A stretch of DNA of 52,936 bases, from positions 1-52,936 of IMG/VR virus record IMGVR_UViG_3300007959_000003. The stretch is one strand, 5' to 3'. Source of the DNA: a virus. Its lineage: Duplodnaviria > Caudoviricetes. This document shows, piece after piece, positions 2,619 through 52,936 of the stretch; the first letter of the stretch is position 1; each line of letters opens with the position of its first letter. Made by a program: the position numbers and the translations under genes. Under the pieces are notes generated by a model. The model was not told the DNA's origin, made no database searches, and saw only the letters and a program-made list of their open reading frames with translations.

Positions 2619-3026
2619 ATGCGATTTATTATCTACATATGCCTATTTATGCTCACCTCAGTTCCTAGCTCATATGCCGTAGATCTGAACTCGCCCCCAC
2701 CTTCCAAGAAAATCACGGTCAGGTCTGAAATCGAGCGCGGCGCCAATTCTGTGAAGCTATGCGTCAACCTATTATGCATGAGCAAAGCTATCCAGCGCGA
2801 GGCTACGAACAACACGGACACGGACGCCTTCAAGCTGGGCGCGAAGTTCTATGCCTGGTCGACTGCCGACATCTATGGTGACAAGGCCCTTGCCGAGGCA
2901 TACTACGGAGCGTTCAGCAAGGTGCAGACGGATTACCAGATTGGCGATAAAGCGCTCTGTGACATGGCCGGGCTGAGGCTGGAAAGCGTAGCCCCTCGGT
3001 TGTCGAAGTACCGAGCCGCGCCCTAG
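2619..3026 (+). CDS. Exported protein (lysogenic conversion or superinfection-exclusion candidate)
   Basis: Signal peptide MRFIIYICLFMLTSVPSSYA; GGAGG SD; between cI and int. Confidence 0.7.
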   Translation: MRFIIYICLFMLTSVPSSYAVDLNSPPPSKKITVRSEIERGANSVKLCVNLLCMSKAIQREATNNTDTDAFKLGAKFYAWSTADIYGDKALAEAYYGAFSKVQTDYQIGDKALCDMAGLRLESVAPRLSKYRAAP

Positions 3027-4168
3027 ACGTTGGATAGCCTCTCAACCTCCGTGCTGATCTTCTCCGACCAGGGCCGCAGTTGCTCCACCGGAATCTCTAG
3101 GTAGCTGTCCGTGATGTCAGACCGCAGCGAGTGGTTCATCAGCGCCTTGATCGTCGCCGTTGGGATCGCAAGCGATTCACAGACCGACCTGAATGTTCTC
3201 CGCAGGCCGTGCACGGTCAGATCCTTGAAGCCGAGACCCTTGAGTGTCCGAGACAGGAGCGCCACGTTGCCCCCCTTGCCCTGCCCAGCAAAGGCATAGA
3301 CCGACCCGTCTTTGAGATCCCGTCTCCGCTCCAGGATGACGCGCACCGGCCCACTCATTGGCAGCGTCAAGGTGGTTCCGTTCTTCGTGTCCGGGATGAT
3401 GAAGGTCCCCTCTCGGAAGTCCACATTCTCCCACAAGAGCCCTGCAGCCTCTTCCGATCTGAGCCCGGTGTGAAGCACCAGCGTGAAGGCGTCCCGCAGC
3501 GGATGTCTCAGGAACTGGAGCGCCTTGGTGAACTCGGAGAACTGGGAGAAGGAGAGCCGGTCGGTTTTCCGGTTGCGAGGGTTCCAGGTCTTGGTGGCCG
3601 TGAGGATGGTAGTCGGAGACGCCGGGGAGCTTTCCATCTCGGCGTGAGCAAAGGACCAGAGCCCCCCGAAGAAGACCATGGCCAAATTTGCCGAGGCCGG
3701 TCCGTTCAGATCTGAAATCTCCTTGAATCTCACCCTCACCTCCGCCTTGGTGATTTCAGAGATAGGCCGGTTCAGCCAGGGCGCCAGGTATCGCTCGACT
3801 AGGTGGGTGTAATGCTGCCGTGTCGAATCCTTGAGACTTCGGCTGCTGAGGTAGTCCCTGAAGATCATCTCGACCGTTGGACCGGATTCCGCCCGGCGCT
3901 GTTTCTCTATCCGAGGATCCACGCCACGATCGATCTCAGTGATCAGCTCTTTTGCCCGAGCGCGCGCCTTGTCCGGGGTCCATGCGCCGTAACTGCCAAT
4001 CGTGAGCGTCGCCGGCTTGCCGCCGATGGTTTTCCTGAGGATGAAAGTCTTGGCGGCCTTGCCGACCCGGAGCCCAAAGCCCTTGACTCCGGTGTCGAAA
4101 TAGTCGGTTTGCTTCTCGCTGTACGGCAGCGCGTCGATAGCCGTCTTGGTCAGGTTCAGCACTGGCAT
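3023..4168 (-). CDS. int: Tyrosine integrase with P4-type arm-binding domain
   Basis: YFDTGVKGFGLRVG arm domain; catalytic TGLRSEE, TKNG, HGLRRTF, MNH and SY residues. Confidence 0.95.
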   Translation of the reverse strand: MPVLNLTKTAIDALPYSEKQTDYFDTGVKGFGLRVGKAAKTFILRKTIGGKPATLTIGSYGAWTPDKARARAKELITEIDRGVDPRIEKQRRAESGPTVEMIFRDYLSSRSLKDSTRQHYTHLVERYLAPWLNRPISEITKAEVRVRFKEISDLNGPASANLAMVFFGGLWSFAHAEMESSPASPTTILTATKTWNPRNRKTDRLSFSQFSEFTKALQFLRHPLRDAFTLVLHTGLRSEEAAGLLWENVDFREGTFIIPDTKNGTTLTLPMSGPVRVILERRRDLKDGSVYAFAGQGKGGNVALLSRTLKGLGFKDLTVHGLRRTFRSVCESLAIPTATIKALMNHSLRSDITDSYLEIPVEQLRPWSEKISTEVERLSNV

Positions 4169-4169
4169 T

Positions 4170-4480
4170 GATCTCTCCGGAGAAAACACGAATTGCAATT
4201 TGGGCAAAAGTTCAGGATAAGTTCGGACGCAGAAGGTATACCGAGTCCGAGCGCAGGTCAAGGCGGTTTTATGATGGTCAAGAGGGGATTCAGGTTGTGC
4301 TTGAAATGGTTGAGGAAATAGCTTTGAGGGGAAATGACTGGTAGGCAGGTTCCAACGCGGGATTTAGCTGAATTGTTTTATCAGAAAACAAAACATTTCT
4401 TACAAGTGTTCATAAAGCTTAAACTATTTCCAAGGGAACTTTTAAAAAGTTCTGCATAGGTTCTCCGAGAAAAACGCACC
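4170..4480. other. Candidate attP region
   Basis: AT-rich non-coding region upstream of int, flanked by imperfect direct repeats tctccggagaaaacacg (~4174) and tctccgagaaaaacg (~4462); inverted repeat gaactttt-a-aaaagttc (~4436-4452). Confidence 0.55.
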
Positions 4481-4531: not shown

Positions 4532-4560
4532 AAAAAAGGCTCCCCCGGAGAGGAGCCTTT
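4532..4560 (-). terminator. Rho-independent terminator ending the late operon
   Basis: aaaggctcc...ggagccttt hairpin followed by a T run on the minus strand. Confidence 0.8.
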
Positions 4561-4579: not shown

Positions 4580-5014
4580 CTACACCCCAGGCTGCCCCTG
4601 GATCGGTTGAGCTGCGCTGAGCGCGCTGTTGAGCGCCATGGACACCGCCTGGAACTGGTCGAGCTTCTCCTTAGCTGCAGAGGCCTCGGCTGCCAACTGC
4701 TTGTAGCTTTCCACCGCCGTCATCACCGTGGGGGTCTCCGCTGCCGCTATCTGGACCACCTGAGTAGCAGCGTCCGCCGCCGGCGCGAGCTGCCCGGTGG
4801 TGGAGTCGGTCCCGAGTGCGTGGATGCCCGAGGTGACGAGCCCGGCCGCCATGGGCGCGCCGACGTTGATCGGGACGGCGCCGGTCGCCATGCCGTAGCA
4901 GGCCATCCCGCCGGCTGCCAGCTGTGCCACACCCTTGAGCGAGGAAACAGGATCCGCTTTCACGTTCTTCCCGAAGTTCTTAAAAAATGCCCCGATCTTC
5001 TGCCAAAAACCCAT
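4580..5014 (-). CDS. Putative membrane protein of the lysis cassette (holin-like)
   Basis: Amphipathic N-terminus, two Gly/Ala-rich hydrophobic segments, C-terminal coiled coil. Confidence 0.55.
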   Translation of the reverse strand: MGFWQKIGAFFKNFGKNVKADPVSSLKGVAQLAAGGMACYGMATGAVPINVGAPMAAGLVTSGIHALGTDSTTGQLAPAADAATQVVQIAAAETPTVMTAVESYKQLAAEASAAKEKLDQFQAVSMALNSALSAAQPIQGQPGV

Positions 5015-5573
5015 TTTGCACCTCCAGTGCCTTGATGTAGCCTGCCATGAAATGATCCTCGATCTGCAGGAGTTGGCCGTCCCCGTCGCTTAGCGTCAGC
5101 GGGTCACAGCGGTGAGAGTACATAATTGCCGGTACGCACGGTACCGGGTCATCGTCCCGGACAACCCGGGTATGGTCAAGTTGTGGCGCCCAGCTGAATC
5201 TCCAGTAGACCCGAGGGGAGCCGAAGGTGATCAGTTTGCAACCGACGTGCTCGGCAAGGAGCGTGGCAACGGCGCCGCCCAGGCTGTGCCCCGTTACCAC
5301 AAGATTCCCGCTCTTCACCGTGGGCATCCCGCCGGCGCAGAGCTTGCGGAAAGCGTCGACGAACCCGCCGTGGGCAAGGTGCCCCCCGCATGACTTCTTC
5401 GGCCAGAATCTGGCATCCCGGAGCCAGTTCTCGGCGTTCGCCGTGCCGCGGATGACGATGATGGTGGAGTCCCTATGCCAATGGACCCCATACCGGAGAT
5501 CGTCGACGTCGTACCAGTCCTGCCCCCCCGGTCCGTAGCTTTCCAGGCAGAGTTTCGCGCAGGCCTCGATCAT
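4980..5573 (-). CDS. Class 3 lipase (alpha/beta hydrolase)
   Basis: IRGT, HGGF, GHSLGG nucleophile elbow, TFGSPR, DDPVP, DH. Confidence 0.9.
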   Translation of the reverse strand: MIEACAKLCLESYGPGGQDWYDVDDLRYGVHWHRDSTIIVIRGTANAENWLRDARFWPKKSCGGHLAHGGFVDAFRKLCAGGMPTVKSGNLVVTGHSLGGAVATLLAEHVGCKLITFGSPRVYWRFSWAPQLDHTRVVRDDDPVPCVPAIMYSHRCDPLTLSDGDGQLLQIEDHFMAGYIKALEVQNGFLAEDRGIF

Positions 5574-5752
5574 GGTGACCTCCGCACAAAATGCCCAGAG
5601 ACGGTCGCCGACCATGCCGTCCTACCGGAGGCCCACACGGCGCCGTCCTCAAAGGTGCGGCCTGCTGCCACCCCCGTGTTGATGTCCTGAAGGGTGAAGG
5701 ATGCGCAGCCGGGGAGCGCCAGGACGAAGAGTAGGACTGCCCTACCTCGCAC
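5570..5752 (-). CDS. Small lipoprotein
   Basis: GTG start; RGRAVLLFVLALPGC lipobox-like signal. Confidence 0.6.
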   Translation of the reverse strand: MRGRAVLLFVLALPGCASFTLQDINTGVAAGRTFEDGAVWASGRTAWSATVSGHFVRRSP

Positions 5753-6371
5753 GGAGCGCCTCGTATTCGTGAACGGAGCGCTGCACGTTCTTTTTGATCC
5801 GGATCGCCCAGTCATCCAGGTACTGCGCCTTCTTCGGGTTGGCGTCGACGATCTGCACGTACCGGCCATGGCCGAGCCCTACCAGGTGGACGAAGAGTAG
5901 GGTCTGGTCGACCTGCTTCATCCTAGCGATGGTTCCGGGACCGATGTTGCCGTCAATCGGTATCGGCTTGAGGCCCTTGTGTAGCCCGGCATAGTTGATT
6001 GCCCGCTGAATGATTCTCGCAGCGGTCCCCTGCCCCATATTCACGGCAAAGTCGAAGTAGAGGTTGGCCACGATCTGGTTGGGCCATTCATCACAGCGGG
6101 AGGCCCCCCAGAAGTCGCGCTGGTAGATCTGCCCCGCGCGCTCGAGCGTCAGGTTGGGGATGTCTTCGTGAGGGTAGGAGGCTGCAGCGATCCCGTACTT
6201 GGTACCGACCAGCTTGCCGCCGGCATAGTTCCCGCTGTCGCCGGGGTCGTTCTGGAATCCGCCCTCGTTGCCGAAGGTATGAATGAGTGCGGGTTTGATA
6301 TCGGCCGCATAGGCCGGGTGGAGGGTAGCGGCAACGCATAGCGCGAGCGCCAGGGTGATGAGGTGCTTCAT
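5742..6371 (-). CDS. GH108 endolysin with N-terminal Sec signal peptide
   Basis: EGGFQNDPGDSG...TKYGI, FDFAVNMG, IDGNIGPGT; signal MKHLITLALALCVAATLHPAYA. Confidence 0.92.
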   Translation of the reverse strand: MKHLITLALALCVAATLHPAYAADIKPALIHTFGNEGGFQNDPGDSGNYAGGKLVGTKYGIAAASYPHEDIPNLTLERAGQIYQRDFWGASRCDEWPNQIVANLYFDFAVNMGQGTAARIIQRAINYAGLHKGLKPIPIDGNIGPGTIARMKQVDQTLLFVHLVGLGHGRYVQIVDANPKKAQYLDDWAIRIKKNVQRSVHEYEALRAR

Positions 6372-6416
6372 GGTCTCTCCTTCCCGTCTCACGACGGTAA
6401 TGGTGCGGTTTATGGG

Positions 6417-6830
6417 CTATCGGCCTCTGACAACTCGCCTGCCCCTGGACGTATAGCCTTTCAATCTCATGGGGACTTTCACGGTGACCTCTCCCGCGGC
6501 CCACGCCGACGGAAGCAGGGTCACTAGGCTGCTTTGCGACGATTCCGCCCCCTCAGGAGTTACCCCGGCCACGACCATGTAGTTGGTGACGTCGGGATTG
6601 AGCCCGTGGAGCACGATGCTCGGCTGTGAACACCCTGCTATCCAAATTGGCGAGCGGCCTTCTACTGCGTCTAACCCGGCGAATGGAGCAGTGGGGTTCG
6701 CTCCGTAGTAGACCCGATATCCCGCGCAGTTCGTCACCTCCGATCCGTAGGGGTCCCAGACCAGCGTAACGGTGCTGCCCATGGCGGGCATTGGTACCAA
6801 GAGGAGCAGTGCCAGCAGTAGGCACCTCAT
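6417..6830 (-). CDS. Exported fibronectin type III domain protein
   Basis: Signal peptide; TVTLVWDP...AGYRVYYG...GLNPDVTNY...ESSQS. Confidence 0.8.
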   Translation of the reverse strand: MRCLLLALLLLVPMPAMGSTVTLVWDPYGSEVTNCAGYRVYYGANPTAPFAGLDAVEGRSPIWIAGCSQPSIVLHGLNPDVTNYMVVAGVTPEGAESSQSSLVTLLPSAWAAGEVTVKVPMRLKGYTSRGRRVVRGR

Positions 6831-8482
6831 CCCCGAACAATTCTTTTGCCTGGAATGCGTCGGCCTGCCGCGCGTAGGCGCGGTGTAATGATGATAGTCA
6901 CCGTCGCGGACGCGCTTGCTGAGACCAATCCAAAAGCGTTTTTAGTCCAAGCAAAAGCCGTCATCACTCCGGGATAGAGGAAAGTGAAAGATGTCGGCGG
7001 AGATGATGCCCATCCTGGATCGCTTGCGCTTGGTGGCGTTGAACTTTCGGTGATCATGTACCCCACCACCCCGTCAGAGCCGGAAAAAGCGGTAACGGGG
7101 ACAACGTAACTGGTGGCATAGGCTGGCATGCTGAAGGCCGCCACTAAAGGGGTTGCTCCCACAGATACCATTCCGCTGGCAGAACCGGCTAAAGTGGCAC
7201 CGCTATATGCTGCCATCATTATGGTATTGTTGCCGGGGGCTAGCCCGCTAACCGCCATGCTCCAGGTCGTGCTGGTTGGATATGTAATTGTGCCAAACGT
7301 CGCACCGGAAATACCCTGCACTGTGAGTCCTGCACGCATCGTCCCAGTGATGGTCGCAGATGTGTCCGCTACCACTTGGCTCTGAACCTCTATCGGGTTA
7401 TCTGCAATTACAGCATCGAAGAGATTGACAAACGTCCCATTGAAATAGGCGTGGTTCAGGTCATTTCGAAGATACGTCTGCCAAGCGTAATGCAAAACTA
7501 CTCGGCCGCCGAACTCAGTTGCAGAGGCGTCCGAAAGAAAAAACCCGTCGGCTACCTTATAAGGCGGGACCAGATCTCCATTCTCGTCACGGTCGGTGGT
7601 GACCCAGTACTCGTTATTATATCCGTCCATTAAAAACGTGCTGACCGGGGCCTTCCGCCAGCCTAACCAAGAAGGAGACGGATTATCGGGCACGGGTTGG
7701 CTCAGGATTGCAGGATCCGACGTTTTCGAGTAGTAAATTTGCAGCGTGACCGAGCTGGTGCTAGTCCATTGCGCGCCGTGGTCGTTATCGTACGGAGATG
7801 GAAACGCTAAAAAAGCGTCTCGATCTGGCAGGTAGACTACAAAAGGGGCTGCGCAGTGAGGCCACACTGGCTGCAAGGACCTATTGGGAATGAAATCTAC
7901 GTAGTCGCCATCAAGATCCGCTACTCCCAACACATTGGTGAGCTTTGCGTAGCTATACTGCGTTCGGTAAAAATTGGCAACAGGCACAGATGAGTTCAAA
8001 ACCGCATCGGGTGTACAGGTTTCTTGAAAATAATGCCAGGTGTTATCCGCCGAAACAGCTACGCAGGAGTTGTAGGTGCGGTAGTCGTTAAATGCAGAAT
8101 CGGCATGGAATACCGACGCTCCGCCGTTGATGATGTTCCACGTCAACCCCAGGTCTGTGCTTTTCCAAAGATAGATGTTAGTCTGCGCTTCTGATGCTTT
8201 GGGGCTTATGTTGTAGAGCCTGCCCCGGTATTGGAAAATGAAATGGAACGATGGATTCCCTCCATTCCACACAGGGGTAGCGGTCTGCGTCCACGACTTG
8301 AAATCAGTAGAGGTATACCTGTAGATAGTGGAATTCCAGGTCTGCGCACCAAAGGCGATCCCAGACCCACCAACATTAAGCACGGTATTTTCAACCGTCT
8401 GCTGAAACCCTGGAATTGGGTTGATGGTAGTGGAGTCATCTACAAACTGGCCACCAATGTCACCGCTGTAATGCCAACTCAT
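6827..8482 (-). CDS. Putative beta-propeller/glycoside-hydrolase-like protein with Ig-like C-terminal domains
   Basis: Asp-box-like TSTDFKSW and KSTDLGLTW; C-terminal GYMITESSTPP...AWTKNAFG domain resembling Geobacter surface proteins. Confidence 0.6.
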   Translation of the reverse strand: MSWHYSGDIGGQFVDDSTTINPIPGFQQTVENTVLNVGGSGIAFGAQTWNSTIYRYTSTDFKSWTQTATPVWNGGNPSFHFIFQYRGRLYNISPKASEAQTNIYLWKSTDLGLTWNIINGGASVFHADSAFNDYRTYNSCVAVSADNTWHYFQETCTPDAVLNSSVPVANFYRTQYSYAKLTNVLGVADLDGDYVDFIPNRSLQPVWPHCAAPFVVYLPDRDAFLAFPSPYDNDHGAQWTSTSSVTLQIYYSKTSDPAILSQPVPDNPSPSWLGWRKAPVSTFLMDGYNNEYWVTTDRDENGDLVPPYKVADGFFLSDASATEFGGRVVLHYAWQTYLRNDLNHAYFNGTFVNLFDAVIADNPIEVQSQVVADTSATITGTMRAGLTVQGISGATFGTITYPTSTTWSMAVSGLAPGNNTIMMAAYSGATLAGSASGMVSVGATPLVAAFSMPAYATSYVVPVTAFSGSDGVVGYMITESSTPPSASDPGWASSPPTSFTFLYPGVMTAFAWTKNAFGLVSASASATVTIIITPRLRAAGRRIPGKRIVRG

Positions 8483-8497
8483 AATGGTAACTCCTGA

Positions 8498-9571
8498 CTA
8501 CTGGACCTTGAAGCTGCTTATCAGGTCGTAAATATTTATGTTGGGGTCACTGAAGGCGTTGCCGAGCACCAGCCACATGGTGTTATTGTTGGGCCTTGTC
8601 GCCGACCATGCAATTACGCCGCTGTCCGAATAGGTGGTTAAACCGTCAACGCTTTTCGATACAAGGCGCCAACCCGTAGCACTTGTAATGAGCGAATAAT
8701 CTATGTCCACTCCGCCGGGTATCTGGCTCAACCCTGCGATCTGTTGTATCGCGCCGGAAGCATCCCAATACACCGTGCTGGTTGATGGGGTATCGTATGT
8801 TATAGGCGCTGCCGATATGGTGAACATCCTAAGCGTGGATGCGCTGGACTGAGAGACGGTCGGCATGGTTGCTCTATCCCATACCTCTATCGGGCTGATT
8901 GGCAGATAACCTCTATCCCCATAAGTCAAACCGCCTTCTCCGTCATCAAATACTACTATCTGAGTGGTGTCATAGAGTGCTTTAGTGCGTACGGTATAGG
9001 TTTTATCTGTTTTAGTAATCGCCGTCTTATAGACCAACGCTGCTTGAGACGCATCGTTCAGGCCGGTCAACGTCAACGCTCCGGTCCCGGTGATTGTTCC
9101 TGTCCCACCTGTTATAAACTGAAAGTTGGTTGAATTCAATACAACACTTGCAGATGCGGCGGCAGTAACTGGACCGTAAGTACTGCTCAGTGATCCCTCA
9201 CCGGAAACGTTATTTGCGCTCACCCAGATGTAATAGCCAGTACCTCCAGTGAGTGGACCGTCAATGGTATAGTTTGTGCCGGTGGAGGCTGATGCAATTT
9301 TTACTCTGGCTGTACCGTCCGATGCCGTCCCGTAATAGACGTTGTAAGACGTGGCACCCGACACCGAGGACCATGTTGCGGTTATCTGAGCTGGGGAGCT
9401 GGAAGCAGAAACCCCGGTAGGGGCATCAAGGGTTGTCGCAGCACGCACAGCAGCCATGAAGAGCAACTGGGACGAAGCGTGAGCAGTAGAGCACCCCTTA
9501 AGCCCGAACAGCACCGGGCATAGGAGAAAAGCCAGGATAGGGAGAGCCATTGCCGCGAACTTTATCCGCAT
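8498..9571 (-). CDS. Exported FN3-domain protein
   Basis: Signal-like N-terminus; APTGVSA...ATWSSVSGATSYNVYYG FN3; TAATG coupling. Confidence 0.75.
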   Translation of the reverse strand: MRIKFAAMALPILAFLLCPVLFGLKGCSTAHASSQLLFMAAVRAATTLDAPTGVSASSSPAQITATWSSVSGATSYNVYYGTASDGTARVKIASASTGTNYTIDGPLTGGTGYYIWVSANNVSGEGSLSSTYGPVTAAASASVVLNSTNFQFITGGTGTITGTGALTLTGLNDASQAALVYKTAITKTDKTYTVRTKALYDTTQIVVFDDGEGGLTYGDRGYLPISPIEVWDRATMPTVSQSSASTLRMFTISAAPITYDTPSTSTVYWDASGAIQQIAGLSQIPGGVDIDYSLITSATGWRLVSKSVDGLTTYSDSGVIAWSATRPNNNTMWLVLGNAFSDPNINIYDLISSFKVQ

Positions 9572-12500
9572 TAGAAGTTCTCCTTGATCGCCGCACAATC
9601 GGCGGTATTTGCTCCGGTCCCCTTACAAACGAACCATGATGACTTTGCGGCAGTTATGCTCGCCGGGGTACCTGTGACCCAGGTTGGCGTCAGGGTGACA
9701 AAGGACAACGCGCCGCCTCCGCTCGAAGTAACCTTGAAATCAAAGTACCGGCCCGAGACCACATTGGTGATGGTGAGCGATGTTGATCCTGTGCTGCTGA
9801 TCGTCGCGCCGGCAACCGCTGCAGTATCGATGCTGGTCGAAGTGGTCTGTGTAAAGACTCCCCCGTTGATGGTCGGATTAGTTCCAAAAACCAAGGATCC
9901 GCTGCCGGTTTCATCGGTGACTGCTGCTGCGAGGTTTGCCGAAGACGGCGTTGCCAGGAACGTTGCGGCTCCAGTTCCTAGCCCGCTCACCCCGGTGCCG
10001 ATAGGCAGCCCGGTGCAGCTCGTCAGGGTGCCGCTCGCGGGGGTGCCAAGAGCCGGCGTAGTGAACGTCGGAGATGTCAAAGTAAGCCCCGCCAACGTCA
10101 GCGCGCCCGATGCGCGGGTGAGGTCTACAGCCGTGGTCCCAAGATTGACCGAGGGGAGCCGGGCCGCGCCCAGAGTCCCGCTGCTCACGTTGGTCGCATT
10201 AAGGCTGGTCAGGCTGGCCCCGCTGATCGCCGGAAGCGCTCCACTCAACTTAGTCGCGTCCAGGGTGGAGGCAGACGTGAGGTTGCCACTGGCAGTCCCG
10301 GTGAGCGAGCCGACAAAGCCAGTGTTGGCCGTGATAGTGGTACCGGTTATCGCGGCCGGAGTTGTCCCGCCTATCGCCCCAGGAGTCGCAAATGGTACGT
10401 AGGAGGCCGGGATTTGAGTGGTCCCGTTGTACGCCCCACCCCAGGCTGTCCCGCTGGTCCAATAGGGAATCCCGGCCGTTGAGGGCCAGGTCATGCTCCC
10501 ACCACTCGGCGCGGCCCAGGAAGGAAGGCCGGAGACCAGCGTCAACTGGTAGCCGTCGGTGCCCTTGGCGAGGCGAGCAGGCGCGCCGCTGGTGTCACCG
10601 TAAATGATGTCGCCAGAGGTGGTCATAGGGTTGGTCATTCCGCTAGCTGTCGCCTGTGTGCAGCTTACCGCGTTACCGCCGGTATCCACCCCGAGCGGAT
10701 AGTACCCGGCGCTGCATTTTGATGGCGTCGAAGCCAAGGCAGTTGCCAGTGGTGCCGTGAAAGTTGCGGGGAGATCGGATGCGACCAGCCCCCTGAAGGT
10801 TGGTGTCCCGGCTAATCCGTCCGGGCCAGCAAAGACCAGGTTGGCCGATGCTGCCGCCCAGGTGACACCGAGGGTGCCAGATGAAACCACCGGAGAGCCT
10901 GACACTGTGAACTGCGCAGGAAGCGAAAGGGCGACACTCGTAACCGTCCCGCCGTTGGTCCCCGCCGTGCCCGGGTCGTTCTCCATGCAGATTTTGCCGT
11001 TGGCCGGCAGAGTGGTTGGGCACACGTTCCCGCTCATGTACATCGGGACCGCAAAGGGGGTGAGTGCGTAGCAGTCGTTGCTCTTGCCGGTGGAGACCAT
11101 GGATCCGCCCACGGTCGAATAGGAGCAAAAGCCCATCGACTTGTTTCGGATGGAGGTTGAGTATTGTCCGAAGCCCAAAGATGCGAGACCGATCGCGCTG
11201 CCAGTCACGGTTACAGGGGCGGTCCCGGTATAGGTTGCCCCTCCCGATTGCGCTACCCAGGATCGGGTGCCACCGGTCGTTGAGCTCAGCACGTAGCCGT
11301 TACCAGCGGGATTACCAAGAGTCGGCTCCTTCGTAGCATCGGCAACCGTGATATTGGCCGTACCGTTGAAGCTCACCCCGTTGATGGTCCGAGCTGTCTG
11401 GAGCGCTGTGGCCGTTCCCGAGTTCCCTGTAGTGCTCTGGTTGAGGGTCGGGATGTCCGCAGCGACCAGCGCACGGAAAAGGGGTGAGCCGGCCGTTCCG
11501 TTGGGTGCCGCAAAGAAGTAGTTGGCGGTCTGGCTGCCGTAGGGTGCAAGATAATCCGTCCCGGCCACGGCCGCCGATACGGTGCCGCTGCCGTTGGCTT
11601 TCATGATGCCGCTCACGGTACCCGCCCCGCCGCGAGTCGCTGCAACGGTGCCCGAGGTAAGGTTCGTGGCGTTTGCAGCACTCGCCGGTGTGGCATAATC
11701 GGTACCCGCAACGAGTGCGCTTTGCTTCGCGTTCCAGGTCGATTTCTCCGTGTCCATGACAAACCGGTAGGAGGCGCTTTGAGTGATGTTCGCCGGGTTC
11801 GTCGTATCAGTTGTCGCCGAAGCTGCCAGCGCTCCGCCATCCTTGATCACCGCCCCGGAAGTATCATTGAAGAGAGCAATGTGGTTCGCCGCGATGGTGC
11901 CAGTCGGGTTGACCGTACCGGATCCGCTCGGAGATCCCCATGTCCCGTCATCCTTCAGGTATTTGCCAGAGGGAGTCCCGGTAGCGGGGACACCGCCCTT
12001 CTTGGCGGTGGACATGGCCGGTAGCCGGTCGCCGTCAAGTGTGCCAGCCGTGAGCAGAGATGCGTCCGTGGTCGACCCCCCACCCACATCCGCCGAGCAG
12101 GTATAAAGCCCGGTGGAGGCGGTGTAGGTCACCACGTGATATCCGGCCCCAAGGGTTGAGCAGTCTTTGGACTGCGGCAACGTGGGCTTGTTGGAAAGGG
12201 CGGTGTAGTCCGTGGTGCCGGCTGCCCCGATCACCCCCTGTGGGATGGTGAAGTTCAGGACGGCAGCCGAGGATGTCCCGCTGTTGGTGACGTTCGCTGA
12301 ACTCCCTGCCGCTCCGGTTGTTATGGTCCCCACTGATACAGTAGCAGTGGAGCCTGGCCCGCCCGGGGGCCCGGTGAGGTTACCGATGGCCGATCCCCAG
12401 GTCGAAGCGCCCTTGGTATAGAGATCACCCGTGGCAGTCTGCAGGTAGAAGTCTCCGGTGTACCCGATCAGATCCGAAGGAGTCGCCGTGCCCGAGTACC

Positions 12501-12837
12501 AGGTGGTGCCGGTCCCCTGGACCATGAGCCCCCAGTTCGTGGTATTGTTCGGGGCAACTCCGGTTCCCGCAACCTTGCAGACATAGACGCCGTTGTTGTA
12601 GCTGACCACATCCGAGACGGCATAAGCTGTGCTGCCGCCGTAGGCTCCCTTCCAAATGTAAAGGTGATGGGAAATCTCCGTGAGCATGTCGGAGAGCAGC
12701 GGGAGAGGGAAGACCTGAGTGTAGCCGTACCCCTTGAACTGAGCCGGATCGTAAGTCCTGCCGTTCAGGGTAACGGTATCGGCTGCCGCTAAGGTAGTCA
12801 TGGCTACCAGTGCCAGTGCTGCAAGAAGTCTTTTCAT
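9571..12837 (-). CDS. Long tail-fibre-like protein (T/G/S/A-rich) with signal peptide
   Basis: Fibre motifs GDFYLQTATGDLY, GTITTGAAGSSA, ATALQTARTING, VTDETGSGSLVF; short collagen-like G-x-x; signal MKRLLAALALVAMTTLAAA. Confidence 0.8.
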   Translation of the reverse strand: MKRLLAALALVAMTTLAAADTVTLNGRTYDPAQFKGYGYTQVFPLPLLSDMLTEISHHLYIWKGAYGGSTAYAVSDVVSYNNGVYVCKVAGTGVAPNNTTNWGLMVQGTGTTWYSGTATPSDLIGYTGDFYLQTATGDLYTKGASTWGSAIGNLTGPPGGPGSTATVSVGTITTGAAGSSANVTNSGTSSAAVLNFTIPQGVIGAAGTTDYTALSNKPTLPQSKDCSTLGAGYHVVTYTASTGLYTCSADVGGGSTTDASLLTAGTLDGDRLPAMSTAKKGGVPATGTPSGKYLKDDGTWGSPSGSGTVNPTGTIAANHIALFNDTSGAVIKDGGALAASATTDTTNPANITQSASYRFVMDTEKSTWNAKQSALVAGTDYATPASAANATNLTSGTVAATRGGAGTVSGIMKANGSGTVSAAVAGTDYLAPYGSQTANYFFAAPNGTAGSPLFRALVAADIPTLNQSTTGNSGTATALQTARTINGVSFNGTANITVADATKEPTLGNPAGNGYVLSSTTGGTRSWVAQSGGATYTGTAPVTVTGSAIGLASLGFGQYSTSIRNKSMGFCSYSTVGGSMVSTGKSNDCYALTPFAVPMYMSGNVCPTTLPANGKICMENDPGTAGTNGGTVTSVALSLPAQFTVSGSPVVSSGTLGVTWAAASANLVFAGPDGLAGTPTFRGLVASDLPATFTAPLATALASTPSKCSAGYYPLGVDTGGNAVSCTQATASGMTNPMTTSGDIIYGDTSGAPARLAKGTDGYQLTLVSGLPSWAAPSGGSMTWPSTAGIPYWTSGTAWGGAYNGTTQIPASYVPFATPGAIGGTTPAAITGTTITANTGFVGSLTGTASGNLTSASTLDATKLSGALPAISGASLTSLNATNVSSGTLGAARLPSVNLGTTAVDLTRASGALTLAGLTLTSPTFTTPALGTPASGTLTSCTGLPIGTGVSGLGTGAATFLATPSSANLAAAVTDETGSGSLVFGTNPTINGGVFTQTTSTSIDTAAVAGATISSTGSTSLTITNVVSGRYFDFKVTSSGGGALSFVTLTPTWVTGTPASITAAKSSWFVCKGTGANTADCAAIKENF

Positions 12838-12866
12838 AATTTCTCCCGAAATTAAGGTGGTACGAA

Positions 12867-13727
12867 TTACAGTTTTTCTCTTAACTGGAAGGAGTCAGTG
12901 CTCCGGTCGTTGTATGGTAGCTCCAAGGGCGAAAGGTCTTTCCGGGTTGCCAGGAAGGACCGGGTCTGCTCCAGCATGGTCGCATCGTCCGGGTCATAGA
13001 CAAAGAACAGCTCCTGGCTCACGCCGAGCTTGCGCTGCATCTCCATGAACCAGGACACGCCAACGGCGGTGGGGGCCTCGAGAGTGAAATTGCAGACCCG
13101 ACGCTTCGGGGCGATACCGAAGTGGTCTACGCCCCCTTTGCTGGTTGAGACCGTAGTGGCCGAATCATCCCATCCCATCTTGGCGCCATAGGCCATATTG
13201 ACCGGAGGCTGCCAGGCGGGGGCGACGACGCAACGGGAAAGCTCAAAATGTCCGGCCGGGTTGGTCTGGTCATCAATCCAAACCAGAACGTACCGCGCTA
13301 CAATGCTGTAATCCTGTGTCAATTGGAAATAGCGACATTTTGGGAACTGAGCAAGATCCTCTGCTGGGCAAGACCCTCCATCCCAGAATGAGGGATGACC
13401 CCAAGGCAGCCCCCCTTGCGGGTGGTGTGGAAGCCAGAACGGTTGCCAACCAGAATCGTAAAGATCTTGTGTAAAGTTTGCAGCGGTCGAAACTTGAATC
13501 CTGATTTTGGCATCCGGACTCGCATTGTGGTCCAGCAAGGCCAGTACCCTAACGTCAATTTGTGCCCCAAGATCGATCATGAATTTGGTGGCAGCCATGG
13601 TCGTGCCTACGGATTGAGCCCGGGAGCTACGGCTGCTATCCTTCAGACGGTCAAGTCCTACCCAGTTGCCGTCCGAGATGGTTGCAGCCAGTGTTCTGTC
13701 CGGATATGCCAAAAGACAGTTTGCCAT
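12867..13727 (-). CDS. Distal tail/tail-tip protein
   Basis: MANCLLAYPDR...; position in the tail-tip cluster; AGGAG SD. Confidence 0.65.
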   Translation of the reverse strand: MANCLLAYPDRTLAATISDGNWVGLDRLKDSSRSSRAQSVGTTMAATKFMIDLGAQIDVRVLALLDHNASPDAKIRIQVSTAANFTQDLYDSGWQPFWLPHHPQGGLPWGHPSFWDGGSCPAEDLAQFPKCRYFQLTQDYSIVARYVLVWIDDQTNPAGHFELSRCVVAPAWQPPVNMAYGAKMGWDDSATTVSTSKGGVDHFGIAPKRRVCNFTLEAPTAVGVSWFMEMQRKLGVSQELFFVYDPDDATMLEQTRSFLATRKDLSPLELPYNDRSTDSFQLREKL

Positions 13728-13783
13728 ATTGCAGTTGCTCCTAAGCCAATCGAGAGATAACAGCCATAATCGGCACCAGTTTT

Positions 13784-14776
13784 CTAATACCCAATGGCCA
13801 TCCACATTACGTTGGGCACCGTTCCGCCAAACGTACGGACCGTTACTCCAGACGCCGAAAGCCCGTACGAGGTTATCGCGTCGGCCGTCGGAGTGGAGTT
13901 TGAGACCCCCAGGTTGTTGTTAGCGACGAATGTCAAGGCTGCGGTTGGGAAAGCAATGGGGAAGGTTATGGCCACAGACGCCCCACCACTTATCGTTCCC
14001 GCCGTGCCCCACTGGAGGATAAGCCCTCCGGCCAGCTTCTGGTACCCGTTCGTTCCAATGCTGCTCGGGAAGTCCCCATAGGTCGAGGTCAGCCTTGCTA
14101 CGCTCTGGCTGCCGATATTCCCGGTGGTGATGGCCGTAGAGGCAGGCTGGTAGTAAGAACCATGCTGGCCGTCAAGTAGATCTGCATCGAGCCCGCTCCC
14201 CGTTCCATCGTTGCCCGCATGCCAAATGGTGTGACCATTGACATTAAAGTTTGCAGGTTCGGGGATCACGAACTGGATGTATTTTGCTGCGGAGTTTCCC
14301 TGGATGAAGGTGGAAGCGTTCCAGGCCAAGGTATTACCGTCGTTAATCATAACGCCATAGGGGGTTGGTAACTGTCCCGAGCTGCTTGCCACCGGTATCT
14401 GGTTTGCCCCCGGTGATTGCGAAGGCGTAAAACCGCCAACAGTCACCGCATTGGAGATGCTGCCCGGGAACGTAATTGCTCCGGTGCTATCGTTTATGAC
14501 CCCGAGGCTGATCCACGCAGTATTTTGCGAATTCCTCACCTTCAGCACTGTCCCGTTGGGCGCACTTGTGGTATCGGACCAGAACTGGAATGGGAATGTC
14601 GGAGAAGGCGCTACGCTCCCGCTTTGATGGGTCGTGATTGACTGCAGCGCGTTGTTCATGCCAGTTCGGACCTGTGCCCCGGTCCCGTTAGGGACTGTGA
14701 TAGCGGCCTGCATTGCGAAGGCCTGCATTGCGAAGGCAATGAAGATGATCGGCAAAAGGTATCGAGTTGTTTTCAT
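13784..14776 (-). CDS. Tail fibre protein (gp53-like C-terminus) with signal peptide
   Basis: WHAGNDGTGSGLDADLLDG, GYQKLAGGLILQWG, TFPIAFP, WMAIGY; signal MKTTRYLLPIIFIAFAMQAFA. Confidence 0.85.
   Translation of the reverse strand: MKTTRYLLPIIFIAFAMQAFAMQAAITVPNGTGAQVRTGMNNALQSITTHQSGSVAPSPTFPFQFWSDTTSAPNGTVLKVRNSQNTAWISLGVINDSTGAITFPGSISNAVTVGGFTPSQSPGANQIPVASSSGQLPTPYGVMINDGNTLAWNASTFIQGNSAAKYIQFVIPEPANFNVNGHTIWHAGNDGTGSGLDADLLDGQHGSYYQPASTAITTGNIGSQSVARLTSTYGDFPSSIGTNGYQKLAGGLILQWGTAGTISGGASVAITFPIAFPTAALTFVANNNLGVSNSTPTADAITSYGLSASGVTVRTFGGTVPNVMWMAIGY
14706..14735. repeat. 15-bp tandem duplication in the signal-peptide coding region (FAMQA x2)
   Basis: gcctgcattgcgaag twice. Confidence 0.85.
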
Positions 14777-14778
14777 GG

Positions 14779-16410
14779 TCACCCCCAAAGGATCAAAGTT
14801 AAATCGTCGTTTTCGCAGTTCAGGTCAAAGCTAATGATCTTACGGATCAGCCCCGCATCGTAACCAAACCGGGAAAGTTTTACCGTTAAGTTCCGGCCAA
14901 GGTTTAGCAAGTTCTCGAGTCCTGGCCGCATCTTCACCCGGACCTGCAGCCTGTCCCTCATGACGGAGTAGATGCCGAGCCTGCGCTCAGATTCAGCGGT
15001 CTGGTCATCGTAGGCTGAGCTATCAAAGTTCAGTTCCCCGGCCAGTTGGTGCGGCACCGTGACATCAAGGTTTTCCGCGTAGCTCTGCCGGAACTGGAGG
15101 GCTAATTGGTTACGGCGGTCCGGATCGACGGCGCCCGCGAGCTCAGCGGCGTTCTGCACCGTGTAATTCTTCCGGTAGTTGATATTAACCCGTTTCACCG
15201 GGACACCGTTTGGGGTATCCGATTGCCCGAGCAGTTCAAAGTCGTTTTGAATGTCCGCCTCGTCCAGCGTCATGATCGAATCGGTGAGTGGCAGCACCAT
15301 TGGGATCACCCGGAAAATGCCCAGCCTGTCGGACCCGTACCAGTGTCCTGGAGCCGAGAAAATCTGGTCAAGGACTGGGCCCCCAGTCGTTTCAGCATCG
15401 ATGAATACTCCCACGTCACCCGGAAACACAGCGTCCGCTGCGGTTAAATCGGGGAGGCTGATCTGATCATCGGTGACCGAAAGGAGCTGGTTGAGAACCT
15501 GGTGCACCAGCCGGCACGCCGTGGCCCCTGTTGCCGCGCTCGTTCCGTCCATGCAGTCGACGGTGATCACCCCGCTGGGAGTTGAGCCGAGCCTGAAATA
15601 TCCTTCCGTCGGACAAACTCGATATGTTCCGGCCGCTGGTGCAGTGGTGAGCATATCGGTGCTGTTGGCATAATCGGCCCCGCGGGTGATTGCCAAGCCT
15701 TTATCGTAGGCGTTGGAGATGCTGATGCTGCTCGTCGTGTCAATTGCGATATTGGCAGCGTCGAAATCTGGGAGGCTATCAACCGCGGGCTCTGCGTCGA
15801 ACTGCCCTCCGTGCCTCACATTCAGCGCATACACCAGTTTAGAGGTATTGACGCACACCGGGGTAACGTTGAAGACCTTTCCCAGCACCAGCGGCTTTGG
15901 CTTCCCCATGATGTCGTTAGGGGTGCCTTCCAGCCCTTCCGGGAGATCGTTGGTCCCCTGGAACTTCAGATCTTGTACCGGCCGGTCGAGGATGAATTGG
16001 CGATCCCTCAAAGCCAGGGTGAAGATGTCGCGCTCGGGTTTCGCCTGCTGCATGGTCGCCCGGTAGAGAATGGGAAAGCTCGAGACCGGGTCACCGTCGT
16101 ATCCGATCTTGCAAACCAGGTCCCGACCGTCGAAGCCCCATGTCTTCAGATAGTCCAGTGCACCGTCTGCGTTTGAGAATGTGACCTCTCCAAAACCCAC
16201 AGAGCTTTTCCCGCTGGCTCCGCTCCCCTCGAACATGCTGCATTTCAAAGAGCCAGCCTGCTTGATCCTCGGCAAGTAGACGGTGCTCGGCGGAGTATCG
16301 GTCGGAGCCGTAGTGAAACCGGCGCCGGTGCACAAGCTGAGCCGCTCCACCTGGAGGGTGTTCGGGTTGTACCCGTCAGCCTCTATCAGGTATATGACCG
16401 CCCGGCTCAT
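14779..16410 (-). CDS. Tail tip/baseplate-hub-like protein
   Basis: Follows the tape measure gene; GKPKPLVLGKVFNVTP; ends LILWG. Confidence 0.75.
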   Translation of the reverse strand: MSRAVIYLIEADGYNPNTLQVERLSLCTGAGFTTAPTDTPPSTVYLPRIKQAGSLKCSMFEGSGASGKSSVGFGEVTFSNADGALDYLKTWGFDGRDLVCKIGYDGDPVSSFPILYRATMQQAKPERDIFTLALRDRQFILDRPVQDLKFQGTNDLPEGLEGTPNDIMGKPKPLVLGKVFNVTPVCVNTSKLVYALNVRHGGQFDAEPAVDSLPDFDAANIAIDTTSSISISNAYDKGLAITRGADYANSTDMLTTAPAAGTYRVCPTEGYFRLGSTPSGVITVDCMDGTSAATGATACRLVHQVLNQLLSVTDDQISLPDLTAADAVFPGDVGVFIDAETTGGPVLDQIFSAPGHWYGSDRLGIFRVIPMVLPLTDSIMTLDEADIQNDFELLGQSDTPNGVPVKRVNINYRKNYTVQNAAELAGAVDPDRRNQLALQFRQSYAENLDVTVPHQLAGELNFDSSAYDDQTAESERRLGIYSVMRDRLQVRVKMRPGLENLLNLGRNLTVKLSRFGYDAGLIRKIISFDLNCENDDLTLILWG

Positions 16411-33163: not shown

Positions 33164-33239
33164 TGGAGCCGACTACAGGACTCGAACCTGCGACATCCTC
33201 TTTACAAGAGAGGCGCTCTACCTACTGAGCTAAGCCGGC
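33164..33239 (-). tRNA. tRNA-Thr(UGU)
   Basis: GCCGGCTTAGCTCAGTAGGTAGAGCGCCTCTCTTGTAAAGAGGATGTCGCAGGTTCGAGTCCTGTAGTCGGCTCCA: 76 nt, full cloverleaf, TGT anticodon, encoded CCA. Confidence 0.95.
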
Positions 33240-40893: not shown

Positions 40894-41611
40894 CCTTTCT
40901 GTTCGTTAGGAATCGGCTGATATAAAGCCAAACATCCGGGCCGGGCGACCGCGCCCGTGCCTTGACCACCATCTCCTCAACCTGTACGTCAATCTCGTTG
41001 TCGGTCATTTCAAACTTCTGGCGGATGAACGGTCTCTTCTCTTGAGCCATCTCCCGAATCAGTTTTTCGGTGAGCGGTACCTTCTCCTCTTCTTTTGGAG
41101 ATGGAGATGGAGATGGAGATGGAGATGGAGATGGAGATGGAGATGGGGCATTGCTCAAATCATGCAGTAGCATCGATTTAGCATTGCTAAAACCATGCTC
41201 GGAGCATGGTATATTCCCGTTTCTTTTCTCCCACTTAGCTTTTGCGGCCTTACGGGCCTTGTCAGAACGTGCTTGAGCATCCGATGCCCAAGGATTATTT
41301 GCCTGCCAGTCGTGAACAAGGTAGAGCGACCGTTTTCGATCTAAAAATTTCAATTCGCACAGTGCAGAGATGAAAATTCCTGGTTCGCCTTCCCACTGAG
41401 CGGCGACTGCAATGTCGGTTTCGTCCATGCCTCTCAGCTCACCATGCGGCCGGTTTTCGGCTACCCACAACCACAAAAAAACCAGTGAAACAATTCCGTC
41501 AGATCCTAATGCTCTTTTTAGTCGTTTCGTTTTGTGATGGTTGGGAAAAGTAACAGCCAGTCGGATATCAACATTCACTACTCCCCTCCTAATTTCGATT
41601 AAAGTGCTCAT
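40769..41611 (-). CDS. Replication initiator protein
   Basis: HHKTKRLKRALG...LWLW...HDWQANNPW; PS linker; upstream of DnaC. Confidence 0.8.
   Translation of the reverse strand: MSTLIEIRRGVVNVDIRLAVTFPNHHKTKRLKRALGSDGIVSLVFLWLWVAENRPHGELRGMDETDIAVAAQWEGEPGIFISALCELKFLDRKRSLYLVHDWQANNPWASDAQARSDKARKAAKAKWEKRNGNIPCSEHGFSNAKSMLLHDLSNAPSPSPSPSPSPSPSPSPKEEEKVPLTEKLIREMAQEKRPFIRQKFEMTDNEIDVQVEEMVVKARARSPGPDVWLYISRFLTNRKDDLNAKRNRNSAAQPGTKASSLRPGDFSDDLTQEFLAHGSG
41097..41144. repeat. (GGAGAT)8 microsatellite encoding (PS)8
   Basis: Eight perfect hexamers. Confidence 0.95.
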
Positions 41612-52515: not shown

Positions 52516-52542
52516 TATTGAAACTCCTGTGGTTGCTGAAGG

Positions 52543-52572
52543 AGGCCCTCTGTTCGTGCAGAGGGCCTTTTC
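52543..52572. terminator. Strong hairpin with T tail on the plus strand
   Basis: aggccctctg-ttcgtg-cagagggcct-ttt. Confidence 0.7.
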
Positions 52573-52574
52573 TG

Positions 52575-52936
52575 TTAATCCTCGAAAGTGTCCAAGTCGA
52601 CGTACTGAAGCGCGTAGCCGTTCCTCTCGACGGCCTTCAAGCAGATCGGCTCGGTCTGGTCCTTCACGTACCGAAGCGCGTCGCCGTCCATCTCGACGGC
52701 CTTCAAGCAGATCGGCTCGGTCTGGTCCTTCACGTACCGAAGCGCGTCGCCGTTCCTCTCGACGGCCTTCAAGCAGATCGGCTCGGTCTGGTCCTTCACG
52801 TACTGAAGCGCGTAGCCGTTCCTCTCGACGGCCTTCAAGCAGATCGGCTCGGTCTGGTCCTTCACGTACTGAAGCGCGTCGCCGTCCCTCTCGACGGCCT
52901 TCAAGCAGATCGGCTCGGTCTGGTCCTTCACGTACC
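52575..52936 (-). CDS. 3' part of the DUF4116-like repeat protein
   Basis: (VKDQTEPICLKAVERNGDALQY)n ending VDLDTFED. Confidence 0.88.
   Translation of the reverse strand, partial: YVKDQTEPICLKAVERDGDALQYVKDQTEPICLKAVERNGYALQYVKDQTEPICLKAVERNGDALRYVKDQTEPICLKAVEMDGDALRYVKDQTEPICLKAVERNGYALQYVDLDTFED
52599..52936. repeat. 66-bp tandem repeats (right end, about 5 copies)
   Basis: Same unit as at the left end. Confidence 0.95.

Follow-up and report, generated by a model that had tools for sequence, protein, structure and literature searches.

We find that both tail-fibre proteins of a temperate siphovirus open with predicted Sec-type signals, which comparison among relatives supports as real, conserved and carried by genuine tail-fibre genes. 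To our knowledge, all parts of tailed virions are held to assemble in the cytoplasm, and the known tail fibres, e.g., lambda Stf and the long fibres of T4, lack signal peptides and are put together there, often with the help of cytoplasmic chaperones. No precedent for a Sec signal on a tailed-phage fibre was found in the literature searched (full text, one library). That true fibre genes have, on more than one occasion, gained conserved export signals with a predicted cleavage site calls the cytoplasm-only rule into question. We tentatively propose that the exported fibres fold in the periplasm and dock, at lysis, on virions built in the cytoplasm.

The window, i.e., the whole stretch of 52,936 nucleotides that was analysed, is the complete genome of a temperate siphovirus; it encodes capsid, portal, terminase and tape-measure proteins, and the phage is tailed and released by lysis. 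The eight genes at 5570-14776 are all on the minus strand, and neighbours either overlap or lie 2-56 nt apart. They are part of a single late operon shared with the tail genes, which a terminator (4560-4535) closes downstream of a lipase gene and a 144-aa gene. The relevant features are:

3023-4261: integrase, which marks the phage as temperate
4535-4560, minus strand: intrinsic terminator with an 11-bp stem and a T run, the sole strong one on the gene strand
5570-5752, minus strand: lipoprotein of 60 aa, with a GTG start and a lipobox ending in Cys
5742-6371, minus strand: endolysin (GH108 and PG_binding_3) with an N-terminal signal peptide
6417-6830, minus strand: small FN3 protein (137 aa), Sec-type signal present; a 4-nt overlap joins its start to the stop before it
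6827-8482, minus strand: protein of 551 aa; no signal, no family matched
8498-9571, minus strand: FN3-domain protein of 357 aa, whose 20-residue hydrophobic N-terminus is a signal or a membrane anchor
9571-12837, minus strand: fibre 2, 1088 aa, with a predicted Sec signal in codons 1-19 (12781-12837)
12867-13727, minus strand: tail-tip protein, phrog_8610, of 286 aa when counted from the Met at which homologues align; no signal
13784-14776, minus strand: fibre 1, 330 aa, with a predicted Sec signal in codons 1-21 (14714-14776)
14705-14737: perfect 15-nt tandem duplication, 2.2 copies, inside the fibre-1 signal
14779-16410, minus strand: tail-tip protein of 543 aa, phrog_8917 (E 2.5e-88), directly after the tape-measure gene; no signal

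Between 4200 and 17000 on the minus strand, no promoter-like site was found with an E. coli-type consensus, which makes a weak test, and no internal terminator among the exported genes rises above chance level. By this same weak test, none of these genes has the promoter and terminator of its own, apart from the late operon, by which a moron is recognised. The exported genes form the integrase end of the late operon and adjoin the lysis cassette.

As the original prediction stated, six of the eight genes open with a Sec-type or lipoprotein signal, judged by a heuristic and by inspection of the sequence: both fibres, the two FN3 proteins, the GH108 endolysin and the 60-aa lipoprotein. The tip genes at 12867 and 14779 do lack one, as does the propeller-like 551-aa protein. 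The signals were called with a home-made heuristic for the n-, h- and c-regions (own threshold, score ≥4.5) on 63 minus-strand ORFs of the window, and positives are concentrated in the span (5/7 ORFs, versus 1/56 outside; Fisher one-sided p = 1.7e-5). The lipoprotein is not among these seven ORFs, having been dropped by the greedy ORF picker. The background rate of the heuristic is 20 positives among 644 further ORFs (3.1%), all ≥100 aa long and from 80 IMG/VR loci. All three regions are present in the signals, namely a basic n-region, an uncharged hydrophobic core (roughly 7-20 residues) and a cleavage region. Ala at -1 and Ala, Val or Thr at -3 are found in all 15 signal-bearing fibres (11 relatives of fibre 1 and four of fibre 2); the site of one of them, P0198/L131, which the heuristic missed, was taken from the alignment. 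The cores have the length of signal peptides rather than of membrane anchors, with the exception of the 357-aa FN3 protein. Tat export is ruled out, as there is neither a match to the TAT_signal family at E up to 0.01 nor an RR consensus in the n-regions, which contain K, KR or KRF. Export and cleavage of the fibres are thus well supported as predictions from these signals.

Are the signals actually translated? A strong Shine-Dalgarno sequence precedes the signal ATG in every signal-bearing gene examined, while none was seen before an internal start near the cleavage site in any of them. The fibre 1 ATG lies 2 nt past the upstream stop and is preceded by GGGGG, and that of fibre 2 is preceded by GGGAGA. 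In the window, fibre 1 does have Met at codons 17 and 22, with a weak AGG ahead of Met22, and the original prediction had named a downstream start among the things that would overturn it. This scenario finds no backing in the fibre 1 signal of the related phage L092, which contains no ATG, GTG or TTG, or in any strong internal Shine-Dalgarno sequence. The survey of start sites rules out internal translation starts as a general explanation and supports the signal-including start as the one probably in use.

Fibre 2 matches phrog_1833 (tail fibre) and, weakly, CBM_5_12, and its homologue in L092 matches Phage_fiber_2. Its predicted mature N-terminus carries the motif VTLNGRTY, which stands at the very start of signal-less homologues, 1-4 residues from their first residue. 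In IMG/VR, 20 of the 21 loci with this N-terminal motif have no signal, and in all 21 the phrog_8917 and phrog_8610 genes lie directly upstream. The position behind the tip genes is kept also in L090, L091, L092 and L127, and among relatives the fibre-2 family always comes next after the phrog_8610 gene; in the signal-less loci the fibre starts between -4 and +12 nt from the upstream stop. By this context, fibre 2 is the canonical fibre of a conserved tip module. A region search with residues 1-62 retrieved the query itself only, and the phrog_8610 protein has no match in 96 genomes of the class of G001. Fibre 2 contains 12 Cys, several in local pairs. As a mark of periplasmic folding, cysteine content does not discriminate, since signal-less relatives and cytoplasmic phage proteins also have Cys.

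In fibre 1 the signal is followed by a conserved N-terminal domain (residues about 23-100) and then by a Gp53-like C-terminal tip domain. The protein matches PF21882 (E 8.6e-16) and several PHROG tail-fibre families. Residues 5-119 are 64% identical between the window and L092. Through the tandem duplication, the five-residue unit with the cleavage motif A-F-A is present twice. An AF2 model of residues 1-130 (pLDDT 69.8) places a helix at 4-19 apart from the domain. With this model, the best Foldseek match in the PDB has E 0.41, which is not usable, and sequence searches of the PDB with both fibres gave no matches. The invariant residues of the N-domain are common to signal-bearing and signal-less forms, and the signal-less proteins start 2-3 residues ahead of an invariant Gln. 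In L087, L088 and L125, a gene of the fibre-1 family lies downstream of a J-like protein.

We are interested in how the signal is distributed among relatives. Whether homologous fibres keep the N-terminal extension was among the checks proposed with the original prediction, and the answer is that they usually have none: the signal is found on 0/61 ORFs with the fibre-1 N-domain in IMG/VR and in one of the 21 fibre-2 loci, and the fibres of the two isolated phages examined are also signal-less, which makes the signal-less state the norm. The signals are add-ons, in that homologues without them start no more than a few residues from where cleavage is predicted. Signals placed exactly where the fibres of relatives begin suggest export from the cytoplasm and not assembly in it. 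For fibre 2, the signal is kept in the window, L092 and L001/L131, which share gene order and differ in GC3, despite divergence of the fibre itself; the signal sequences differ among them while their features are retained. An unrelated group of lambda-like prophages has signal-bearing fibres too. A tree of 40 N-domains requires at least two changes of state (five on the ML tree), and the two fibre families are unrelated to each other, which together support more than one origin of the signal.

From the signals, their junction with the conserved domains and their operon context, we infer the following route. Both fibres would be translated late, off the operon that also encodes the tail, and each as a precursor bearing a cleavable Sec signal. 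Each precursor would pass unfolded through SecYEG and lose its signal to signal peptidase I, which would leave the N-terminus that signal-less homologues have from the start, and the fibres would then fold and trimerise in the periplasm. Meanwhile, capsids and fibre-less tails would be built in the cytoplasm as usual. Fibres and particles would meet only once the exported endolysin, the lipoprotein and a presumed holin break the envelope, and docking would take place through the conserved N-terminal domains. It is conceivable that two-compartment assembly arose at least three times, twice in one fibre family and once in the unrelated one. A possible benefit is that fibres are kept from cytoplasmic defences that target them, for example the Bil ubiquitin-like system, which is reported to tag central tail fibres (10.1101/2023.09.04.556158). 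Another possible benefit is that they are kept from receptor precursors inside the cell. The route, its at least three origins and these benefits are offered together as a single, tentative reading.

Several observations bear on docking itself. That docking domains are kept in signal-bearing fibres counts for attachment to virions. Against it, an exported endolysin usually works with a pinholin, so that cytoplasm and periplasm might mix only at the final burst, when the fibres would be diluted. Next after the signal-bearing fibre of L087 comes a tail assembly chaperone (PF16778) that has no signal, which fits cytoplasmic folding better than a periplasmic route. In three prophages a signal-bearing fibre adjoins a signal-less paralogue with the same N-domain, and the latter may be the virion fibre. 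L001 has a signal-less fibre-1 stub just 95 aa long, which also counts against attachment, as do Met17, Met22 and the weak AGG in fibre 1 of the window and the heuristic nature of the signal calls.

We nevertheless lean towards attachment at lysis over a role confined to the envelope, which we consider somewhat unlikely. In the latter case, the fibres and their exported neighbours would be exported and cleaved without ever joining virions, and the infected cell's envelope would be their site of action: there they could block superinfection, help lysis, or bind or break down receptor polysaccharide on its way through the periplasm, such that progeny are not trapped on debris. Adsorption would then rest on the tip proteins or on the 551-aa protein, which is signal-less and could be a receptor-binding protein. 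Consistent with this, the signal-bearing protein that follows fibre 2 is different in each of three related phages (FN3 proteins in the window, a right-handed beta-helix, PF13229, in L092 and a 492-aa protein of no family in L001), the exported genes adjoin the lysis cassette, and signal-bearing and signal-less paralogues are neighbours in the three prophages. However, the docking N-domain and the exact native N-terminus after cleavage are both conserved, and neither would serve a purpose in a protein that stays undocked. In addition, L092 and L001 show no signal-less candidate for a fibre downstream of their tip genes, and in 20 signal-less phages the tip module has fibre 2 as its one canonical fibre.

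It is improbable that there is no export at all, either because translation starts downstream or because the N-terminus stays uncleaved as a buried or membrane-tethering helix, with the usual cytoplasmic assembly. A start at Met22 of fibre 1 in the window would give a normal signal-less protein (Met17 is also present), and the chaperone behind the L087 fibre points the same way; yet the start-codon-free signal in L092, the lack of a Shine-Dalgarno sequence near the junction in the other genes, the Ala at -1 in 15/15 fibres exactly at the conserved-domain junction, and cores of signal-peptide length (the 357-aa FN3 protein excepted) all argue for export. Least likely, and very much so, is a role in lysogenic conversion, in which the prophage would express these genes as cargo and their products would be adhesins or decoys in the lysogen envelope. 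The phage is temperate, with its integrase at 3023-4261, the exported genes are at the integrase end of the late operon, and the closest matches to the FN3 domain of the 357-aa protein are cellular. Against such display, which the original prediction had offered as one of two options, neighbouring genes overlap or adjoin inside the late operon, the scan found neither a promoter-like site nor an internal terminator above chance (with the E. coli-type consensus, a weak test), and the one strong terminator lies at 4560-4535. Moreover, Sec export by itself ends in the periplasm and not at the cell surface, and relatives conserve fibre 2 as a structural gene. Of the earlier interpretation, what holds is that the signals are real and conserved, that homologues usually have none and that a downstream start finds no support; the lysogen display is not supported, nor is the label of decoration genes (see below).

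Late attachment of exported fibres can be compared with several known systems. The fibres resemble lambda Stf and the T4 fibres in their fibre domains, in gene position directly behind the tip genes of the late operon, in a docking part conserved at the N-terminus and in variable distal parts, and differ from them in that both carry predicted cleavable Sec-type signals. T4 fibres can be added to particles in vitro, outside the cell, which makes attachment at a late stage physically possible. Known exported endolysins, i.e., the SAR type (P1 Lyz, phage 21 R) and the secreted Lys44 of fOg44, are made late, pass through Sec before lysis and then wait outside the cytoplasm for the membrane to be de-energised. 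An exported endolysin is usually paired with a pinholin, which opens no large holes. The GH108 endolysin of the window is of this exported kind; unlike the fibres, however, such enzymes act on the cell wall and are not virion parts that need a particle from another compartment. Virion proteins with signal peptides are known in filamentous phages, whose pIII and pVIII are processed by signal peptidase, but those phages are extruded at the membrane without lysis, whereas the phage described here is tailed and released by lysis. T5 Llp, lambda Lom and Bor, PblA and PblB of SM1, and the DGR target lipoproteins are phage envelope proteins that mask receptors or convert the host. They are similar in that their genes lie near the tail-fibre region and their products are in the envelope. 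PblA and PblB are fibre-like cell adhesins that have no signal peptide and are released by lysis, while the signal-bearing members of this group are not fibres with a virion docking domain. Most of the group have their own promoters.

If the fibres join virions, they represent a new assembly step and a new point of conflict between phage and host, and late Sec or signal-peptidase activity becomes essential for infectivity. Periplasmic folding would also allow disulfides or glycosylation, which in that case is relevant to engineered fibres. If they stay off virions, they are envelope effectors of a new class, derived from fibres and exported. In both cases, signal-bearing fibres would escape annotation pipelines in which such N-termini are trimmed or ignored.

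The start of the 357-aa FN3 gene overlaps the fibre-2 stop by 1 nt. A homologue search with its product gave generic FN3 matches only, over about a quarter of the query, and no relatives were found for the C-terminal 220 aa; its nearest relatives are cellular FN3 proteins. The two FN3 proteins match generic FN3 domains only, and their designation as decoration genes is hence dropped. The 551-aa protein may be a glycosidase of the beta-propeller kind (BNR/sialidase-like) whose C-terminal domains are Ig-like, a lead only, as its atlas scores are 0.80 or less, under the 0.9 bar. Signal-bearing homologues of the endolysin are present in L092 and L001, and in both the lipoprotein, whose start overlaps the 3' end of the endolysin gene, is kept after it. 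Looking for spanin features, we found no C-terminal hydrophobic segment in the 60-aa lipoprotein and no i-spanin-like gene in the window. In L001, a 140-aa N-terminally anchored protein is encoded upstream of the endolysin.

The eight genes of the span (5570-14776, minus strand) are listed below, where "signal" denotes a predicted Sec-type signal peptide.

13784-14776, minus strand: fibre 1 (330 aa, Gp53-like_C), signal (codons 1-21)
12867-13727, minus strand: phrog_8610 tip protein, no signal
9571-12837, minus strand: fibre 2 (1088 aa), signal (codons 1-19)
Minus strand: FN3 protein (357 aa), signal-like N-terminus
6827-8482, minus strand: 551-aa protein, no signal
6417-6830, minus strand: FN3 protein (137 aa), signal
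Minus strand: endolysin (GH108/PG_binding_3), signal
5570-5752, minus strand: lipoprotein (60 aa, GTG start overlapping the endolysin 3' end), lipobox in place of the small-residue cleavage motif

The original observation was that six of these eight genes begin with an export signal and that the tail-tip genes have none, and both halves hold. In the six, basic residues at the N-terminus lead into a hydrophobic core, which is followed by a cleavage motif of small residues (a lipobox in the lipoprotein); the signal is missing from the two tip proteins (of families phrog_8610 and phrog_8917, the latter at 14779-16410) and from the 551-aa protein. We called signals with a simple n/h/c-region heuristic of our own (cut-off score ≥4.5), not a trained predictor. 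It is positive for 5 of the 7 span ORFs scored (the lipoprotein had been lost at the greedy ORF-picking step) versus 1 of the 56 other minus-strand ORFs of the window (Fisher p = 1.7e-5), against a background rate of 3.1% (644 other ORFs, 80 IMG/VR loci), and the observation therefore stands. The C-termini of the 137- and 551-aa proteins resemble each other in being short, basic tails of the form Arg-(Ile/Val)-Val-Arg-Gly, a form known to us from no sorting signal.

Are the signals translated and cleaved? Every signal-bearing gene examined at the DNA level has a strong Shine-Dalgarno site ahead of the signal ATG. No internal start codon lies within the fibre-1 signal of L092, a metagenome contig with the window's gene order, and no Shine-Dalgarno-backed start lies near the cleavage junction in the other signal-bearing genes, window fibre 1 excepted. 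There, a perfect 15-nt tandem duplication inside the signal (2.2 copies, 14705-14737) doubles a five-residue unit with the cleavage motif, so that the signal has two possible cleavage sites and contains Met17 and Met22 as internal Met codons, with a weak AGG upstream of Met22. Translation from a downstream Met, raised earlier as an alternative, is not supported. Ala occupies position -1, and Ala, Val or Thr position -3, in 15/15 signal-bearing fibres; no Tat motif was found on the signals. Signal peptidase I acts on the periplasmic side of the inner membrane, so a conserved site that restores the native N-terminus argues for real export; we consider it improbable that the fibres are not exported. 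In an AF2 model of fibre 1 the signal is a separate helix (residues 4-19); beyond that, structure and complex predictions gave no usable result.

Fibres were expected normally to lack signal peptides, and the homologues bear this out. The predicted mature N-terminus of fibre 2 bears the motif VTLNGRTY. Among the best-scoring IMG/VR loci with this motif, the gene starts 1-4 residues before it in 20/21 and a signal is present in 1/21; phrog_8917 and phrog_8610 genes immediately precede the fibre in 21/21, and in signal-less loci the distance from the upstream stop to the fibre-2 start is -4 to +12 nt. Fibre 2 is therefore the canonical fibre of a tip module of three genes that is conserved across these loci. 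Its window copy has 19 added N-terminal residues, the last three Ala-Ala-Ala, abutting exactly the old start. Residues 23-100 of fibre 1 form a widespread N-terminal domain, which carries a signal-like extension in 0 of 61 ORFs among the best-scoring IMG/VR loci. Among the 119 other proteins listed in a homologue search, 13 align from query residue ≤45; 6 of them are extended by a signal-like segment, and 7 start 2-3 residues before an invariant Gln. The annotated start in the isolated phages MED4-184 and CRP-6 is 6-7 codons ahead of the N-domain match. The signals of both fibres are thus add-ons to normal fibres.

The extension is kept in a few relatives and absent from most IMG/VR homologues. 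Counts refer to the best-scoring loci, and the metagenome scan covers 8 of its 23 loci; two relatives share the window's gene order. L092 encodes, in this order, TMP, a 540-aa protein, fibre 1 with a signal, phrog_8610, fibre 2 with a signal, a beta-helix protein and a GH108 endolysin (each with a signal) and the same small lipoprotein. The other (L001/L131, a 65-kb IMG/VR contig) has a signal on fibre 2 and on the 492-aa protein that follows, a hydrophobic N-terminus on the endolysin, and the lipoprotein; its fibre 1 (L001 10001-10288) is a signal-less 95-aa stub with the N-domain only, which could be a remnant or could serve as an independent docking module. Across these three genomes GC3 differs and the signal sequences are dissimilar, with signal features retained; a fourth fibre-2 relative (P0201) has a signal too. 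A separate case is a deltaproteobacterial MAG (loci L087 and L088) and its class, where the fibre-1 N-domain occurs in 5 of 96 genomes at 9 places, in lambda-like tail modules directly after a J-like protein (5 genes with a signal, 3 without, 1 cut off). In a maximum-likelihood tree of 40 fibre-1 N-domains (11 with a signal, 29 without; near-identical rows left out, namely 40 of 61 IMG/VR rows, P0112, P0114, L118 and L121), at least 2 changes of state are required by the well-supported branches and 5 (bootstrap range 3-6) by the tree as a whole. Fibres 1 and 2 are unrelated, and the trait therefore arose at least three times. In one signal-less relative the fibre region is followed closely by a reverse-transcriptase-like ORF (L127 8437-9939) with a Y-x-D-D type motif, pointing to a diversity-generating retroelement that targets a tail protein.

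What would become of the exported fibres? We tentatively favor late docking onto virions, as originally proposed, at a little under an even chance: the docking domains and exact mature N-termini are conserved, and fibre 2 is the sole canonical fibre of its module. The same points weigh against a somewhat less likely reading, in which exported fibres act only in the envelope. Several points weigh against late docking or for the envelope-only role: the exported endolysin, suggestive of lysis of the pinholin type, in which the compartments would hardly mix ahead of the burst; a chaperone lacking a signal right after the fibre in the prophage locus L087; signal-bearing and signal-less paralogues side by side in three prophages, with only the N-domain in common; and an exported protein after fibre 2 that differs in each relative. 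As a lead only, the window's signal-less 551-aa protein, possibly a propeller-glycosidase, could then bind the host. Display on the lysogen surface had also been proposed; the span genes lie in one tight late operon ending at a strong terminator (4560-4535), with no promoter-like site found on their strand, which speaks against expression in the lysogen; we consider lysogenic conversion very unlikely.

The endolysin signal is of a known kind (exported or SAR endolysins), as is the lipoprotein (spanin-like lipoproteins); the fibre signals are not. They come closest to exported endolysins, to the coat proteins of filamentous phages and to envelope proteins encoded by phages, for example Llp and PblA/PblB. 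The passages returned by a full-text literature search hold no report of Sec signals on tailed-phage fibres. Speculatively, exported fibres might escape fibre-targeting cytoplasmic defences such as Bil, which is reported to tag the central tail fibre (10.1101/2023.09.04.556158).

In all three related phages (window 5570-5752, L092 13049-13222, L001 16042-16245) the gene right after the endolysin encodes the conserved small lipoprotein, 57-67 aa long. This protein lacks a C-terminal membrane segment, and no i-spanin partner is seen in the window; the lipoprotein could be an undescribed type of outer-membrane disruptor. Nor is a canonical multi-pass holin seen in the window. Two more genes separate the lysis genes from the terminator: one for a class 3 lipase (4980-5615; PF01764, phrog_21992 esterase/lipase) and one for a Gly/Ala-rich protein of 144 aa (4580-5014; homologue at L001 16917-17372).

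Apart from the export signals in the span, the phage is an ordinary temperate siphovirus. PHROG scans identify a replication module; small and large terminase, portal, head morphogenesis protein, scaffold and major head protein; adaptor, neck and tail terminator; a 399-aa tail protein, chaperones and a 1729-aa tape-measure protein; and a lysis cassette and integrase, almost all on the minus strand. Both ends of the 52,936-base record, which the window covers entirely, fall within a single array of 66-nt tandem repeats (1-220 and 52518-52936), which codes for protein repeats of 22 residues (phrog_5925 and related families); the genome is therefore probably circular and complete, and was probably opened within the 22-residue-repeat gene. 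The window also holds a tRNA-Thr (TGT anticodon, 33164-33239) and, within its replication region, a stretch of repeated TGGAGA hexamers (41096-41143). Adjoining the integrase, on the strand opposite to most phage genes, a 135-aa ORF (2619-3026, plus strand) with a signal-like N-terminus and no PHROG family could be lysogenic-conversion cargo.
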